From Blastocatellia bacterium (GTDB taxonomy: Bacteria; Acidobacteriota; Blastocatellia; Chloracidobacteriales; JADJPF01), in contig JADJPF010000020.1 in the NCBI GenBank assembly GCA_016713405.1, forward strand, positions 616,862 to 680,861: a stretch of DNA of 64,000 bases, in the 5' to 3' direction. The notes under the pieces are model-generated. The model was given only the letters and a program-made list of their open reading frames with translations, was not told the DNA's origin and made no database searches. Below are positions 3,705-32,031 of this stretch, in pieces. The position numbers and the translations under genes were made by a program. Numbering within the stretch: the stretch's first letter is position 1; each line of letters begins with the position of its first letter.

Positions 3705-4063
3705 TTATTTTTTGGCTAATTCTTCAATTCTTTCATTTTCTTCAATGATAGTTGAGCGTAAAGCAATAAAAGCTCGTTGAACATTATCAGGTAAGCTATC
3801 ACAATTAGCACAAGCATCTGCATTTCCTTTTAATGCAGTAACTCCACAAATTCCACAAAGACGACGGTTAGCTACTTCTTGATAAGATTTTTTTTCTAAA
3901 TATTTTTTGCTTCTATGACTGCATCTTCTAACCAAGCAAAGTGTTTTACATCTGTTTCAACAAATTCTGTAATATGTTCAATAGTCATTACATTATGTTC
4001 GCTTGATTTAGTCAAAACTTCAAAGGTTGGTTCAAATAAAATTGCATGTTTTCCTAGTCTCAT
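3705..4063 (-). pseudogene. small zinc-ribbon protein (CxxC-x12-CxxC), frame broken by a 1-nt indel
   Basis: ORFs 3896-4090 and 3705-3935 join (..EDAVIEAKKYLEKKSYQEV..) if the T6 run 3903-3908 gains one base. AGGAGG lies 10 nt upstream of ATG 4063. Confidence 0.45.
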
Positions 4064-4221
4064 AACTTCAACTCCTCCTATAACTTGCAAAATAAGATTT
4101 TAGGCAGACATTAGATAAATCTGCATTAATAATTTTAAGTATTACTTAATTGTTAGGATGTTTTTATAGCCGACAGTATAGCACGAGTTAGAAAAATCTA
4201 ACCATTTTTGTCAAGAGATTT

Positions 4222-23900: not shown

Positions 23901-24308
23901 TTAAAATTCTGTTTCAAGTTCACTGCTACTAATTTGTTCAATAGCTTCTTTTAACTCTAAAATAGCTTCTTCAGAACTAGCTCCAATAGTAATAGCTGTA
24001 GTTGCATAGCGAATAGCACCTTCTCTTAAGAGTTGCTTACGTTCAACAATTCCCATTACTGGGCGACTTTCAGCAACAAAAGTTCCTTCACCACGCTTGA
24101 CCATTAAAACTCCAGCGTCTACTAGACGTTGATAAGCTTTTGCTACTGTTGCTGGATTAACTCTTAACTCTTTGGCTAAATCTCTGACAGAAGGAACAGC
24201 TTCTCCTGGCACTAAAGCACCAGAAGCAACCAAACGTCGCAACCCTTCTTCTATTTGCCGCCAAATTGGAGCAGCATCACTAGGATCTATATGCAACGCT
24301 CGACTCAT
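23901..24308 (-). CDS. GntR-family (YtrA-subfamily) transcriptional regulator, first copy
   Basis: PGEAVPSVRDLAKELRVNPATVAKAYQRLVDAGVL. AAGGAGG precedes ATG 24308. Confidence 0.8.
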   Translation of the reverse strand: MSRALHIDPSDAAPIWRQIEEGLRRLVASGALVPGEAVPSVRDLAKELRVNPATVAKAYQRLVDAGVLMVKRGEGTFVAESRPVMGIVERKQLLREGAIRYATTAITIGASSEEAILELKEAIEQISSSELETEF

Positions 24309-24348
24309 CTGTCCTCCTTAAAATTTAACTAATACGCTTTAGTTTTAC

Positions 24349-24410
24349 TGTATTACTGTGTCACTGTATTAGTGTATTAGAAGTCTAATACACTAATACA
24401 GTGAAGTCAA
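24349..24410 (-). promoter_or_regulatory. sigma70-type promoter overlapped by a heptamer-based operator
   Basis: On the minus strand: -35 TTGACT (24405-24410), 17-nt spacer, -10 TAGACT (24382-24387). Perfect 20-bp inverted repeat 24361-24380 / 24385-24404. Five TGTATTA heptamers start at 24349, 24365 and 24373 (direct) and 24386 and 24394 (inverted). Confidence 0.55.
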
Positions 24411-24714
24411 TAATAATTTTGCAAAAATTTTTAATTTTTAGCTTAAGATAATAAAAAATTAGAAAAAACTATAAAAATAGTAAAAAATAATAAAGATAAT
24501 AAGAATAAAAGCCTAGGAATTTTGCTAAATACAAATTAACATCCATAAATAGCTTGTTAGTTAGGAGGTCTATACATAAAATAAGAAATTTAGCTAAGGT
24601 TGGTTTGTTAATTAGCAATTTTTTAGCAATTTTTAATAAATATAGAAATAGGAATAAAATTAAAACTTATAGCTTTAACATATAATTGAAGCTTTTATAA
24701 AAATAGTATTGATG

Positions 24715-25011
24715 ATTAGTACACTGTAAACAAAGTTTTCTGAAATTTTATCTCTTAAAGCCCCAACGGGGCGGCATATTTGTAGCGCAGGGGTTCAACC
24801 CTACGTATGATAGTGTAATATTTATAGAGTCACGTAGTGACGACATAATTAAAATATTGTGTTAATTAGGTTTATTATGTTGTCGCTACGCGACTCTAGT
24901 TATGTATAATCACTAAGCTTATGTCTTACGACCTAGGCTACAATTATTTCGTCCCTTCAGGACTCAAGAAATTCAAAAAATATTAACTTACTTAGTTTAC
25001 GCTGTAATTAG
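24715..25011. mobile_element. MITE-like foldback element (alternatively a structured ncRNA)
   Basis: Terminal inverted repeats tacactgtaaac (24720-24731) and gtttacgctgta (24995-25006) are 10/12 complementary. An identical 5-bp attag flanks both ends (24715-24719, 25007-25011). The two halves are inverted copies of each other. The apical stem 24826-24849 / 24874-24897 is 21/24 Watson-Crick, and the 3 exceptions are all transitions. Confidence 0.4.
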
Positions 25012-25063
25012 CTAATTTTTAATAAAAATCTTGCTGTAGTCTTAGGACAAAACTTTTAACTAT

Positions 25064-28000
25064 ATGAGTTCACAACAAATTAAATCCTTTGTTTCTTTAC
25101 ATCAATTTAATCAAATAACCCAGTTTGAGCTAGTAAGCGATGAGCAAAATGCCAAAGCTTATCAATTTACAGAAGATTTGCAAGAACTAGCTATAAGAAT
25201 ATTAGTTAATGCTGCTGCTGGTATTGGCACACAAGCTATTGTAGCTGAGCGTGGTATGGGTAAAAGTCATTTGCTTAATTTAGTACGTAGTTTAGCTAAT
25301 CGCCCAAGATTTGTTAATTTATTACAAGATCAAAACGTAGTCAGTGCTTTTGAGAAACTAGCTTTACCTAAATTACCATCAGATGGATTTCCTACTTTAA
25401 TTTTAGGGTTTGATTTAGAAAAAGGGTTAAATCTAGTAAAAGCTTATCCTATCATTCCTGGAACAGAAAATCTTTCTCCAGAAAATTTAATTACTCAAGT
25501 AGATGATATTATTGATCAAAAAATACGCACAGGAGTACAAATAGCTTTATTTATTGATGGTATTTCTCAATTTCTTATTGATCCACAACAAGGTGGGCCA
25601 CTACTTGAATGGCTCCAAGAATTAGCAAAAGAGGCTGTTAATGGCAAATTTAGTTTGGTAATTACCTTGGATCAAAATGTTGCTGAAGGATCACTAAAAA
25701 AAGTACTCTCTACTATATTTAAGTATGAATACATCAATACTAATAGTATTGTTAATATTATTGATAAAAAGATCTTTGTTAAAACACAATCCCAACGCTT
25801 ACAAGTAGAAAGTCTTTATTCTGATTTACGCCGTAGAATACCTTATTTTTCTTCTTCACAATCTCAATTTGCACAACTTTATCCCTTACATCCTTTAGTT
25901 GTAAAGCTAGCACCAGCAGTAAGACGCTATGCACGTTCATTTTCATTATTTGGATTTATTACAGCCGTTTCTTCTCGCGCATTGCTTAGACGAGCATTTA
26001 ATTTAATTTGCTTAGATGAAGTGTTTGATAGTTTTGAGTTTGATTTACGTAAACATCCAAGTTTAGCTGAGACTTTTGTTCTTTATGATTATCTGTTTAA
26101 TAAATACATTCCTTCCTTACCACAACCACAACCGCTTTATGCCAAAATGATGTTAAAAGCTTTGTTAATATTTTCATTAGCAGGCCAATCTGTAGCAGCA
26201 AAAAGCTTAGCTGATTCTGTAATGCTTTATGATGAGCGAGATCCATTATCTTTTATTGAAATGCTTAATTCCATTATGGCGCGACTTGCTGCTACAAGTA
26301 GCGGAATTGTTGTTAGTGCAGAGGGGCCAGAACTAAGCTATAAATTTAATATTGCAGAAACCAACCCCTTATCTTTACTTGCTAATAAACCTGATATAGA
26401 TATTAGAACTATTACTAAAACTATTGCTAGAGATAAGCCCAAACGACAAGTCTCTAGCCAAAACTTTAAACCTATAGAAGTTAAAGGTGAACCTAGTTTA
26501 TTGCCCCAATCCCCTATTAAAACAGATAGTCTTGTTGCTGCTAGTTCTAATGCTTCCGATATTTTACTAGATTTAGCTGATGCAATACCTGATGATGAGA
26601 TTAAGCTAGATTACCTGCTTGTATCTACAGGAAAGAAGTTTTTTAAGGATTGGCCTTTTGTCTTAGAACAGGATAAACTCCGCGATAGAATAGAACTTAA
26701 CGTAAAATGGCGAGGTTCATTAAGAAAAGGTATATTAGCCTTTGGTGGAAGTATTGAGTTATTTAATGATACAGATGAGCATCAAGCTGTTTGTGAGTAT
26801 GATTGGCAAATAATTATGCTACGTGCTTATGCTCCAATGGCACTACCTCCACCAATAGAATTACCTAATACTTTGCTGTATTGGCAACCAATAGCAGTTA
26901 GTAGTATAGAACGTTTGTTATTAAAACAGTTATTAGTTATCAATGAAGGTAAATCACCTTTAAGCAAAGAAGAAACTTTACAGCTTAAAACTCATTTGGA
27001 AGAAGAAATAGGAAATATTTTTCAGCATGTTTATTTGACTAAAGGACGCTTAATTAATAATCAACAAACAGACTTACATTTAACTGCTAGTAATTCTTTT
27101 TTAATACTAATTTAACTAAACTCTTAGAACCTCTTTTAAGCAAACGTTTTTCTAAACATCCTGAATTTGAAGATTTATTAACTTTAGAAACAGTTTATGA
27201 GCTACTTCCTGGGTTATTTCAACCAACTAGTACACCTAGCCCAGATCAACAAGTTTCATTAGAACAATTTGCACGTCCTTTACACTTAATTTTTAATGAA
27301 GGAAATACTTATAAAATATCTGATTTATTAAATAATGTTGTAAAAGGTTCTGTAGTTGATTATTTTCATCAAGCACTTGAGCAAAATCAAGTCATAACTA
27401 AATTACAAGCTTTTAAGTTAGTTCATAAAGAGCCTTTTGGACTTCAACGACCAGCTTTGCTGTTGATTCTTGCTATTTTAGCTGCTAGTGGTCAAATAGT
27501 CTTATTAGATGAGGTTGACTTACCTATTCATGATAGTAATGGTCTTCGTACCGATATAGACCTTTCAGATTTTAGTTCTATACGCCTTTTACAAGGAAAT
27601 ATTAAACAAGTTAGCTGGAAAGATGTTAATACAAAACCAGTAGATGAGATTACTGAGTACCAAAACTCTAATATATTAGTAGTCGATGATGATCCTACCA
27701 TCCATATGATCTTAAAGATTGCTGCACAAAAGCTTAAATGCCATATAGAAACAGCACTAGATGGGGTAAATGCTTTAGAAAAATTAGAAAAACTTCCTAT
27801 ACATTTACTAATATCTGATTTACGTATGCCCAATATGACAGGTATAGAATTATTTCAAAGTTTGCAAAATAATCCTAAATTAGCAGATATTCCTTTTGTT
27901 GTACTATCTTCTATTGATGATGATGAAGAAGTTGCAGCAGCTTTAGAACAAGGTGTAGAAGATTATTGGATTAAACCCTTAAGAGTAAATGAAATCCAAG

Positions 28001-28311
28001 CTCGTATCAAACGCTTACTTACACGTCAAAATAAAAAAACAACCAAAGCTAAAGACTCAAAACCACCTGCTCTAAATATACCAACATTGCCTAATAAAGA
28101 TGTAGTTGTCAAAGGATTAGCTGCCCCACCAACTTTGCCAACTTCAATAACTCCAGCAATTACACCACCACCAATAATAACTTCATCCACTACACCACCT
28201 CAACAAACAAGTAAAACACTTGATGAGCAAACAGCACAAAACTTGTTGCACTATTTCAAGAAGAAGCTAATAAGGAAATTACTATTCTTCCAGGAAAAAT
28301 GGATCTTATAA
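25064..28311 (+). pseudogene. P-loop NTPase with large helical region and C-terminal response-regulator receiver domain, frameshifted
   Basis: ORF 25064-27115 carries Walker A AERGMGKSHLL (about 25247-25273), Walker B-like IALFIDG, and LYPLHPLVV. It continues in frame 1 (..SNSF|FNTNLTKLLEPLLSKRF..) if the T6 run 27097-27102 gains one T. The receiver domain spans about 27673-28020 (VVDDD, ISDLRMP, VLSS, IKP), followed by a Pro/Thr-rich tail. Confidence 0.7.
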
Positions 28312-28317
28312 AAAGAA

Positions 28318-28962
28318 ATGCTGCCCAAAGTCAGTGCAGCAAAAACACCAGCAAATCCTGTTACTTCCACAAAAACGCCAGCTAACTCTGCTGTTTTACC
28401 AAAAGTTTCTCAAGTGGAAAAACCTACCGCAAGTAACACTGATAGTAAGTTTACTACCAGGAAGTATGCTATTAAACCATTACCACCAAATATAGATCTA
28501 TTTCAAAGTGAGTCTTCTCAACCTACTACAATAGAAAATAAATCTACTACAGATGGCTTAACTATCCCTACTATAGATAAAGAAACTCCACCTATTAATC
28601 AATTACCAGAATTTGAAATTACATCTGATGAAGAAAAAGAAACTTCACATAAAATAAATGAATCAATACCTACAACTTTTAGTATTAACTTATCAAATCC
28701 AGAAGCAATGGGTATTGAAATTATGCAGCTTTATAATCAATTTTGGGACACTTGTCGCCGAGTTGGTAAACCTACTATTATTCCAGAATATGAAGAATTT
28801 AAGGATCTCGTTATAACAAAAGCTAATAAATTAAAAAAACAATTTCATTGTGATGAAATTGCTTTTATTGTGATCACAGAAGAAGATCAAGCTTATATAG
28901 ATTGTCAGGTAAATCGCACTAGTAATTTCCTAAAAACCCCACCTAAGTTTAGATTATTATAG
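28318..28962 (+). CDS. Pro/Thr-rich protein with a small C-terminal domain; probably the C-terminus of the preceding reading frame
   Basis: Same frame as 27457-28311, separated only by TAA 28309-28311. The C-terminal IMQLYNQFWDTCRRVGKPTIIPEYEEFKDLVITKANKLKKQFHCDEIAFIVITEEDQAYIDCQV resembles, from memory, the myxobacterial MXAN_5187-type C-terminal domain. Confidence 0.45.
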   Translation: MLPKVSAAKTPANPVTSTKTPANSAVLPKVSQVEKPTASNTDSKFTTRKYAIKPLPPNIDLFQSESSQPTTIENKSTTDGLTIPTIDKETPPINQLPEFEITSDEEKETSHKINESIPTTFSINLSNPEAMGIEIMQLYNQFWDTCRRVGKPTIIPEYEEFKDLVITKANKLKKQFHCDEIAFIVITEEDQAYIDCQVNRTSNFLKTPPKFRLL

Positions 28963-31820: not shown

Positions 31821-31934
31821 TTTTTATTTTATCTAACAACTATCCTCCTTACTATGCTTGCTGTTTATAAAACATTTTTTTATAATAGCCAAGTTTTGCA
31901 GTCACAAACTATAGATTACTTAAAATAACTTCTT

Positions 31935-32021
31935 GGAGAGGTGGCTGAGTGGTTTAAAGCAACGGTCTTGAAAACCGTCGTAGGGTTACTCCTACCGTGG
32001 GTTCAAATCCCACCCTCTCCG
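31935..32021 (+). tRNA. tRNA-Ser (anticodon UGA)
   Basis: Acceptor stem GGAGAGG/CCTCTCC. Anticodon stem ACGGT/ACCGT with loop CTTGAAA. Long variable arm GTAGG-GTTACT-CCTAC. T arm GTGGG-TTCAAAT-CCCAC. Discriminator G. CCA is not encoded. Confidence 0.95.
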
Positions 32022-32031
32022 TAAATAAAAA

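Follow-up and report, generated by a model that had tools for sequence, protein, structure and literature searches.

Insertion site and empty site

A 287-bp element at positions 24720–25006 of the window (the 64,000-nucleotide stretch of a Blastocatellia genome, phylum Acidobacteriota, analyzed here) is very probably a non-autonomous foldback transposable element of the miniature inverted-repeat (MITE) type, inserted as mobile DNA upstream of a gene for a BrxC/PglY-like NTPase. Filled and empty sites demonstrate its mobility; it ends in terminal inverted repeats (TIRs), it carries 5-bp target-site duplications (TSDs) that are specific to each copy, and several copies are present in another genome.

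The element lies in a 755-bp spacer (24309–25063) between a GntR-family gene (23901–24308, − strand) and the NTPase gene (25064 onward, + strand). A preliminary description, made from the sequence alone, had reported a GC-richer block in this spacer with partly complementary ends and flanking attag pentamers, and all of these features are present: the GC content is 34.7% for the element and 26.8% for the spacer, the ends tacactgtaaac (24720–24731) and gtttacgctgta (24995–25006) are complementary at ten of 12 positions, and copies of ATTAG abut them on the left (24715–24719) and on the right (25007–25011). Two pairs of inverted arms were found. The outer pair, 24720–24749 and 24977–25006 (30 nt, 70% complementary), constitutes the left and right TIRs, which include the conserved termini TACACTGTAAAC at 24720–24731 and GTTTACGCTGTA at 24995–25006; the inner pair is 24825–24852 and 24871–24898 (28 nt, 86%). 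The element had also been described as an imperfect palindrome, and alignment of its left half with the reverse complement of its right half indeed gives 96 identities in 150 positions with a score of 124, compared with 50.6 ± 9.0 (maximum 75) in 200 shuffles. Predicted folding energies are −90.9 and −91.8 kcal/mol on the two strands (z-scores of −7.1 for the + strand and −7.2 for the − strand relative to shuffled sequences), both strands folding equally well and far below shuffled sequence. No open reading frame (ORF) of at least 40 residues is present within 24720–25006.

Relatives of the host locus were located through an 876-residue protein encoded 4.2 kb downstream, which has relatives at 99, 88 and 87% identity; NCBI names the members of this cluster as Blastocatellia/Acidobacteriota metagenome-assembled genomes (MAGs), and the contigs are fully syntenic with the window. 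These names overturned a cyanobacterial origin, which a PatA_N domain had suggested. In the relative at 99% protein identity (L204) the GntR–NTPase spacer is 756 bp long and contains the element in a form 99.3% identical to that of the window; in the relatives at 88% (L203) and 87% (L208) it is 446 and 462 bp long, respectively, and the element is absent. The preliminary description had proposed looking for an empty site containing a single attag, and exactly this is found in L203, L208 and L209, where one ATTAG stands at the junction ...TTGATGATTAG/CTAATTTTTAATAAAAATCTTGCTGTAG... (in short form, ...GATGATTAG/CTAATTTTT...). When the element and one ATTAG are removed from the window, the remaining sequence aligns across the junction of the relatives without a gap at that point. 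No flanking bases are lost at the empty site, the size of the insertion is exactly 287 + 5 = 292 bp and the spacer sequence flanking it is ∼93–95% identical in the element-free relatives. The empty target, ATTAG/CTAAT, reads as a perfect 10-bp palindrome, the midpoint of which is the insertion point. Only a few distant homologs of the downstream NTPase were found, none with an orthologous spacer; exact-protein look-ups of three window ORFs gave no match. A Logan contig of the 99% relative (L205, positions 1–23) begins at position 265 of the element, indicating that the assembly broke inside the foldback.

Homologous copies

Outward extension of the dyads in all genome loci led to three loci of a single MAG, 'Acidobacteria bacterium NC_groundwater_1571...' (JACQZQ01), each of which contains a full-length homolog at an unrelated position: L085 5684–5965 (282 bp), L059 1347–1629 (283 bp) and L070 about 3727–4007. 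The L085 and L059 copies are 89.4% identical to one another with unrelated flanks, and each is ∼65% identical to the window copy. The unrelated flanks argue against assembly duplicates of a single locus. The order of modules is the same as in the window, namely terminus, outer unit, hairpin 1, inner unit and centre, followed by the mirror image. The terminus consensus common to all copies is TAC(A/T)NNGTAAA(C/G), also written TAC(A/T)NNGTAAAC, and the boundaries of the copies could be fixed because the termini are conserved. No other exact occurrence of the terminus was found in the window or in the 209 loci examined.

With its flanking pentamers, the window copy reads ATTAG-TACACTGTAAAC...GTTTACGCTGTA-ATTAG, the L059 copy GTAAA-TACAACGTAAAG...GTTTACTGAGTA-GTAAA, the L070 copy TTAAC-TACTCTGTAAAC...GTTTACTGAGTA-TTAAC and the L085 copy GTTAG-TACATTGTAAAC...GTTTACTGAGTA-GTTAT, the last pair matching at four of five positions. 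The chance of a match at all five positions in this AT-rich DNA is ∼0.003 per site. The pentamers, different in every copy, are genuine target-site duplications. The first option of the preliminary description, a MITE with TIRs and a 5-bp TSD, is thus supported both by the empty site and by homologous copies with differing flanks and duplications.

Internal organization

The interior of the element comprises four stem-loop units in the order − − + +. A covariance model (R2) built from 106 units that flank Y1 transposase genes in other organisms (see below), none of them taken from the window, was run over the 64 kb with filters off; its four best matches all lie inside the element in this order, the next best match in the window scoring 12.1 bits. 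The outer-left unit (24757–24788, − strand; GCTACAAATATGCC GCCCC GTT GGGGC T) scores 30.2 bits (E = 8 × 10−5) and the outer-right unit (24935–24966, + strand; GCTACAATTATTTC GTCCC TTC AGGAC T) scores 21.6 bits (E = 0.0098), and both match the 19-position core pattern described below exactly. The inner-left unit (24826–24857, − strand; ATTATGTC GTCAC TAC GTGAC T; local hairpin 24829–24841) scores 29.1 bits (E = 1.5 × 10−4) and the inner-right unit (24866–24897, + strand; ATTATGTT GTCGC TAC GCGAC T; local hairpin 24882–24894) scores 13.5 bits (E = 0.93), the fourth best match in the window. The centre of the dyad (24858–24865, without strand) sits between the two inner units. The filled copies of the window and of L204 (5529–5816) differ by a single indel, in the loop of the inner-left hairpin (GTA at 24834–24836 in the window, GAAC in L204).

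The outer units have a CTAC-AAATATGNC head, which the inner units lack, and are each joined by one more adjacent hairpin, a combination that corresponds to the Acido-Lenti-1 motif of Rfam (RF01687). In an Rfam scan of the window the right arm (24918–24964, + strand), which consists of hairpin 1 (24918–24937) and the outer unit, was the sole non-tRNA match above threshold (39.0 bits, the gathering score being 37; E = 2.6 × 10−5 for the window). Permissive settings added the left arm (24759–24805, − strand), composed of the outer unit and its own hairpin 1 (24787–24806), at 24.7 bits (E = 0.0025), below the gathering score; a rebuild of the Acido-Lenti-1 seed model (R1) gave 27.3 bits for this arm. 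The two matches are symmetric about the central stem.

The small hairpins noted earlier, gcccc-aac-ggggc and gtcc-cttca-ggac, are both in the sequence, as is the central 24-bp stem with three non-Watson–Crick positions, all transitions: 24832·24891 (A·C), 24838·24885 (T·G) and 24842·24881 (G·T). This stem is made up of the two inverted inner units, reading GTCAC gta GTGAC and then GACAT on the left, and ATGTT and then GTCGC tac GCGAC on the right. The mismatches at 24832·24891 and 24838·24885 represent a single compensatory change, in which the A24832–T24838 pair of the left hairpin is replaced by G24885–C24891 in the right hairpin. The outer hairpins likewise show a compensatory C–G to T–A difference between the arms, and the two copies of hairpin 1 are wholly different in sequence and yet both form hairpins. 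These compensatory changes keep the small hairpins of each arm at the cost of the long stem, a pattern that is expected for stem-loops recognized singly in single-stranded nucleic acid and not for a long foldback helix. A count of covarying pairs on alignment A3 is circular, the units having been chosen for perfect stems, and was not used as evidence.

Acido-Lenti-1 and a repeat found in many phyla

Acido-Lenti-1 was described as a likely small RNA (sRNA) of unknown function from Acidobacteria and Lentisphaerae that is sometimes found near group II introns (Weinberg et al., 2010; PMC2864571), and a 2026 preprint still calls its function unknown. The published seed coordinates reveal a repetitive arrangement. 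In Lentisphaera araneosa there are same-strand runs at spacings of 74, 110, 115 and 192 nt and an alternating −, +, −, + series on contig 16, and a −/+ pair 106 nt apart is present on a whale-fall metagenome read. The same pairing of a − match with a + match ∼100–113 nt away occurs in L121, L030, L070, L085 and L204; both arms of the pairs in L121 and L030 pass the official Rfam threshold, and the − − + + order of R2 matches is also seen in L121 and L070. The L121 dyad (1597–1798), from a Blastocatellia MAG, has differing outer ends and no obvious TAC..GTAAAC termini; further Acido-Lenti-1-like units lie at 1540–1600, just outside this dyad, and at 4079–4125, 2.3 kb from it.

A 28-nt core pattern, GCTACAANTATNNCGNCCCNNNNGGNCT, with 19 specified bases was derived from both arms of the element (∼0.01 chance matches expected in the window). 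It recurs in at least 120 stretches of a collection of species-representative genomes, compared with ∼4 expected by chance, from Desulfobacterota, Bacteroidota, Ignavibacteria, Acidobacteriota, Verrucomicrobiota and Planctomycetota. With three mismatches allowed, 332 core copies were counted in 120 loci plus the window. Adjacent copies are arranged − − (92 pairs), + + (50), − + (40) and + − (8), with a same-strand period of 48–54 nt, and composite − − + + dyads are common (L012, L028, L044, L084, L068, L087 and L014). The full Acido-Lenti-1 form, in which the core directly follows a covarying hairpin whose loop is of the CTTACG or TTGAAA type, is seen in Bacteroidota, Acidobacteriota and Verrucomicrobiota. 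Long head-to-tail core arrays with a 52-nt period and without hairpin 1 are present in Desulfonema magnum (NZ_CP061800) at L081 1393–2617 (24 copies), L081 4198–4960 (15 copies) and L066 7491–7984 (ten copies), the last continuing in L096 9–296; some of these arrays read as spurious ORFs.

No unit of the repeat family was found in ∼35 kb of the empty-site relatives, and neither the core pattern nor the element was matched in viral contigs, plasmids or phages. Clustering of 1182 ORFs from the 120 loci produced no recurrent neighbour family, the clusters consisting of common signalling and TPR proteins. A literature search for the core sequence returned only an unrelated plant primer, and no paper linking Acido-Lenti-1 to repetitive extragenic palindrome (REP)-like repeats or to transposases was found in the searchable literature.

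Association with Y1/HUH transposases of subclass 1.2

In an Ignavibacteria locus (L010), core copies at 13 (− strand) and 597 (+ strand) bracket a 163-residue ORF that encodes an IS200-like Y1 transposase (Y1_Tnp, PF01797; E = 2.4 × 10−26). The family of this protein has at least 8000 matches at E ≤ 10−15, several of which are labelled 'REP element-mobilizing transposase RayT' by JGI. An alignment of 18 members shows invariant H55 and H57 (DHxH; DH[VI]H), an SWQ motif and KYIxNQExHH with an invariant tyrosine, i.e. the HUH and Tyr catalytic motifs. NCBIfam assigns the protein to the IS200/IS605 transposases (68 bits), the score against REP_Tyr_transpos (RAYT) being 35.8 bits, below the cutoff of 80. 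TnpA-Y1 proteins of subclass 1.2 are listed as about 148 residues long, low in copy number, mainly from Cyanobacteria and Bacteroidetes and without an associated REP (Quentin et al., 2018; PMC6006769). Judged from their sequences, the repeat-flanked proteins identified here (∼153–163 residues) carry the published signature of this subclass.

The association was examined in 80 metagenomic loci fetched by protein similarity alone. In about half of these, the window-derived core (with no more than four mismatches) adjoins the gene, compared with a chance expectation of ∼0.001 per locus, and its placement is regular: a − copy ends 45–58 nt upstream of the start codon and a + copy starts 20–30 nt past the stop codon. 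A generic unit detector (a CT[AG][CT]A[AG] head, a short linker and a perfect GC-rich stem) found upstream − units at 44 of 77 loci and downstream + units at 40 of 75, the wrong orientations occurring in 12 of 77 and 17 of 75; the background density of such units was 0.15 per kb in the remainder of the loci and 0.03 per kb in shuffled sequence. As in the element, the gene-flanking repeats comprise inner and outer units. The inner units, ..AACATG(T/C)C GCTCC TAC GGAGC T, are without the CTAC head and either overlap the stop codon or are placed ∼17 nt from the ATG; the outer units, CTA(C/T)AAA(C/T)AT..C GCxCC TAC GGxGC T, are ∼50 nt further out. The full Acido-Lenti-1 model gives few matches beside Y1 genes because most gene-flanking units lack hairpin 1. 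In L010 (540–575, ..LYAAPTELK) and in many of L123–L202 the final codons of the Y1 gene share their sequence with the inner downstream unit, so that the repeat is partly coding.

The scores obtained with R2 indicate that the units of the element are homologous to the Y1-flanking repeats. The element thus looks like a Y1 gene locus from which the gene is missing, with the same outer/inner layout and the same inverted orientation.

Relation to known systems

The element resembles bacterial MITEs (Correia/NEMIS and ERIC-type foldback repeats) in being small, below about 500 bp, and without an ORF, in having TIRs abutted by a TSD, in being polymorphic with a clean empty site and in having several copies with different flanks in a related genome. 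It differs in that the whole element is a dyad of REP-like stem-loop units, not a pair of short TIRs around an unrelated core, and in that no parent insertion sequence (IS) or transposase with matching termini is known for it. Structurally it is a MITE in all but a known autonomous partner, and its behaviour is that of an ordinary MITE insertion.

There are also likenesses to the REPs, bacterial interspersed mosaic elements (BIMEs) and REP doublets forming hairpins (REPINs) of Escherichia coli and Pseudomonas with their RAYT (TnpA-REP) proteins, systems reportedly described by Nunvar in 2010, Bertels and Rainey in 2011 and Ton-Hoang in 2012. In both, short GC-rich stem-loops with a GTAG-type tag are found alone, as clusters, or as inverted doublets that may fold together into one larger hairpin. 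As in a REPtron, a low-copy Y1/HUH gene is bracketed by inverted copies of the repeat, here in other organisms (L010 and about half of the 80 loci). However, the (G/A)TAG tag of the core unit is located 8–9 nt 3′ of the hairpin, whereas the canonical REP tag GT[AG]G is at the 5′ foot; GTAGC abuts a second hairpin only in the two-hairpin form of the unit. The associated protein is of subclass 1.2 (Y---Q--HH) and not of class 2 (Y---NP), and defined 12-bp termini or TSDs are not known from REPINs. The element works and is built like a REPIN/BIME cluster, yet the position of the tag, the class of the protein and the TSDs place it outside the REPINs. The tags of the element face inward, as in the 'TT' dimer of Di Nocera et al. 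(2013; PMC3733652).

With respect to Rfam RF01687, the right arm fits the full 46-nt two-hairpin model, the left arm fits on the opposite strand with a lower score, and the host is an acidobacterium; however, RF01687 is filed as an sRNA gene, whereas in the window the motif is a module within a mobile DNA element and its 3′ half forms a widespread transposase-flanking repeat. The published account of TnpA-Y1 subclass 1.2 (PMC6006769) lists no REP for it and a distribution mainly in Cyanobacteria and Bacteroidetes, whereas a specific inverted repeat flanks the genes in about half or more of the 80 loci and is also found in Desulfobacterota, Acidobacteriota, Verrucomicrobiota, Planctomycetota and Ignavibacteria. 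IS200/IS605 elements share with this system a related Y1/HUH enzyme that recognizes subterminal hairpins in single-stranded DNA, but their hairpins are in direct orientation on one strand, they have neither TIRs nor TSDs and they insert 3′ of a fixed tetranucleotide or pentanucleotide, whereas the element is gene-less, its units are inverted, and it is bounded by TIRs and variable TSDs.

Alternative explanations and mode of mobilization

Several observations weigh against assignment of the element as a MITE built from Y1-associated repeats. As had been stated earlier, there is no nearby transposase: searches of the window and of ∼22 kb of the syntenic loci of the relatives turned up none of any kind (Pfam searches of the flanking ORFs, precomputed Pfam annotation for the relatives), and tblastn with a Y1 transposase gave no match in the 64-kb window. 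An IS with matching termini was not found in any sequence examined. The preliminary description had taken multiple copies with different flanks as the sign of a MITE; such copies, with differing 5-bp duplications, do exist in another Acidobacteria genome, but the window holds one copy only, and no second was found there or elsewhere in ∼90 kb of the loci of the relatives. Within the element, the left Acido-Lenti-1 match falls short of the Rfam threshold, and the R2 score of the inner-right unit is only 13.5 bits (E = 0.93). The Y1-gene loci end at the outer hairpin, as immobile RAYT loci do, with neither TIRs outside it nor TSDs, so that the link between the units and movement of the element is indirect, and no Y1 gene of subclass 1.2 was shown in Acidobacteria.

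The Rfam match raises the question of whether the element is instead a structured noncoding RNA, either an Acido-Lenti-1 sRNA or, as in the second option of the preliminary description, a 5′ leader of 200–290 nt that regulates the downstream NTPase gene. RF01687 exceeds its gathering score on the + strand, the same strand as the downstream gene, the predicted fold is very stable (z = −7.1) and the motif was rated a likely RNA on the basis of covariation (Weinberg et al., 2010; PMC2864571). Transcription within the upstream region of the NTPase gene is possible, the element lying 52 nt upstream of the start codon, and the 292-nt structured insertion could possibly affect this gene. However, a conserved riboregulator or sRNA gene at this position is unlikely because relatives keep the same gene and the flanking spacer without the element, because the motif is on both strands and the − strand folds equally well, and because the motif family recurs across many phyla in dispersed, tandem and inverted copies, also beside transposase genes. 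Covariation in the hairpins is equally expected for recognition sites in single-stranded DNA. A scan for promoters and terminators was uninformative, giving no terminator-like site and eight promoter-like sites, which do not exceed chance (4.3 ± 2.4 in shuffles). Taken together, the occurrence on both strands, the mobility and the link to transposases point to a DNA-level repeat, and the RNA explanation appears very improbable. It had been anticipated that an Rfam match would reclassify the element; the match came, but it is the motif that is reclassified as a mobile DNA repeat and not the element as an RNA gene. A retron noncoding RNA, suggested by the a1/a2-like ends and the long stem, was dropped given the Rfam and repeat evidence, no reverse transcriptase being nearby.

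Two further explanations start from the resemblance to a REPtron. The element could be an immobile relic, a Y1-transposase locus whose gene was deleted in place and whose attag/attag flanks arose by chance. The layout of its units is identical to that of a gene-less REPtron, but the orthologous site is cleanly empty with a single ATTAG, and three gene-less homologs in another genome have their own 5-bp duplications and the same termini; this is the least probable of the explanations considered. A more serious, although still unlikely, alternative is a REPIN-type element, in which two REP doublets are paired and a RAYT-like Y1/HUH enzyme of subclass 1.2, encoded at another locus of the genome, would copy or move the whole in trans by acting on single-stranded stem-loops, with the duplication arising from a non-classical step. 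All four units match the repeats that flank subclass 1.2 genes and have the same outer/inner order and orientation; MITEs usually arise from an autonomous element by internal deletion, and the element resembles a gene locus minus the gene. The HUH and Tyr catalytic motifs of the Y1 family and the RayT label given to some members by JGI are consistent with this, and the palindromic ATTAG/CTAAT target with insertion at its exact centre suits a strand-symmetric single-strand cut. Against it, IS200/IS605 and RAYT chemistry gives no duplication and uses a fixed target, whereas four copies here have four different 5-mers; the gene-containing loci are without TIRs or TSDs, and the 64-kb window contains no detectable Y1 gene.

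The MITE assignment can be combined with a simple sequence of events. In this reading the element inserted into ATTAG/CTAAT and duplicated ATTAG, at a point 52 bp before the start codon of the gene for the BrxC-like NTPase/response regulator. Since two relatives are empty, the simplest timing would be that the insertion took place on the branch of this Blastocatellia strain, after its split from the relatives at ∼87–88% protein identity; alternatively, precise excision may have emptied the site in these relatives. A staggered 5-bp cut would be made by a transposase that is provided in trans and recognizes the TAC..GTAAAC termini. Integration through such a cut, which is typical of DDE transposases, is most likely because each copy has a different 5-bp duplication. 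Classical Y1 transposition, as in IS608, ISDra2 and TnpA-REP of E. coli, has a fixed target and produces no target duplication, and the variable 5-bp duplications do not fit this mechanism. A pseudo-TSD under a Y1 model, in which the element ends in its own fixed target, is ruled out by the four differing 5-mers. For the mobilizing enzyme, a DDE-type transposase acting in trans has about an even chance and a Y1 enzyme of subclass 1.2 acting non-classically a distinctly smaller one, the remainder falling to other routes.

A DDE transposase in a Saprospiraceae MAG (L062) was rejected as a candidate for the autonomous parent: its IS has TIRs of its own, is nested in an inner hairpin and is associated with a duplication of ∼10 bp. 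This IS (L062 2798–4365) encodes a 435-residue DDE_Tnp_1 transposase and interrupts the inner hairpin of a dyad that is otherwise like L055 7459–7635; its TIRs are 21 bp long and its duplication reads CCCTTTAGGG/CCCTTGAGGG. By analogy with the REPs of Pseudomonas and E. coli, the hairpins of the repeat may be targets for ISs.

Implications

Acido-Lenti-1, which has been without a function in Rfam since 2010, behaves as a module of mobile or repetitive DNA, and for this reason sRNA annotations based on it and papers that speculate on its role in regulation should be read with care. The supposedly repeat-less Y1/HUH subclass gains a specific hairpin repeat in at least seven phyla, which widens the REP/RAYT picture well beyond Proteobacteria. 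An element built from REPs with defined termini and variable 5-bp TSDs implies either that a further transposase uses REP clusters as cargo or that HUH enzymes do something undescribed. It is conceivable, if rather improbable, that subclass 1.2 Y1/HUH enzymes are the partners of the repeat in many phyla, Acido-Lenti-1 included, and that in Acidobacteriota they mobilize gene-less four-hairpin derivatives with defined termini and 5-bp TSDs; this would constitute a mode of integration that is not known for any HUH single-strand transposase. With filled and empty sites and several copies in hand, the question of mechanism is directly testable.

Neighbouring features

The BrxC/PglY-like NTPase and response-regulator gene downstream of the element (25064–28962) is a single ORF of ∼1300 residues in the relatives (1299 residues in L204, 1297 in L203 and 1312 in L208). 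In the window it is split into three ORFs of 683, 284 and 214 residues by three 1-nt homopolymer differences near 27096, 28237 and 28310 relative to L204 (99.8% identical). These differences are probably sequencing errors and do not indicate a true pseudogene.

A near-perfect palindrome at 24343–24414 (ctgtattagtgtattaga/tctaatacactaatacag), just upstream of the GntR-family gene, is kept in L203, L204 and L208 and is probably the GntR operator; it also gave spurious low-score microRNA matches in Rfam. A tRNA-Ser gene (anticodon TGA) is located at 31934–32022 of the window and occupies the same place in L204.

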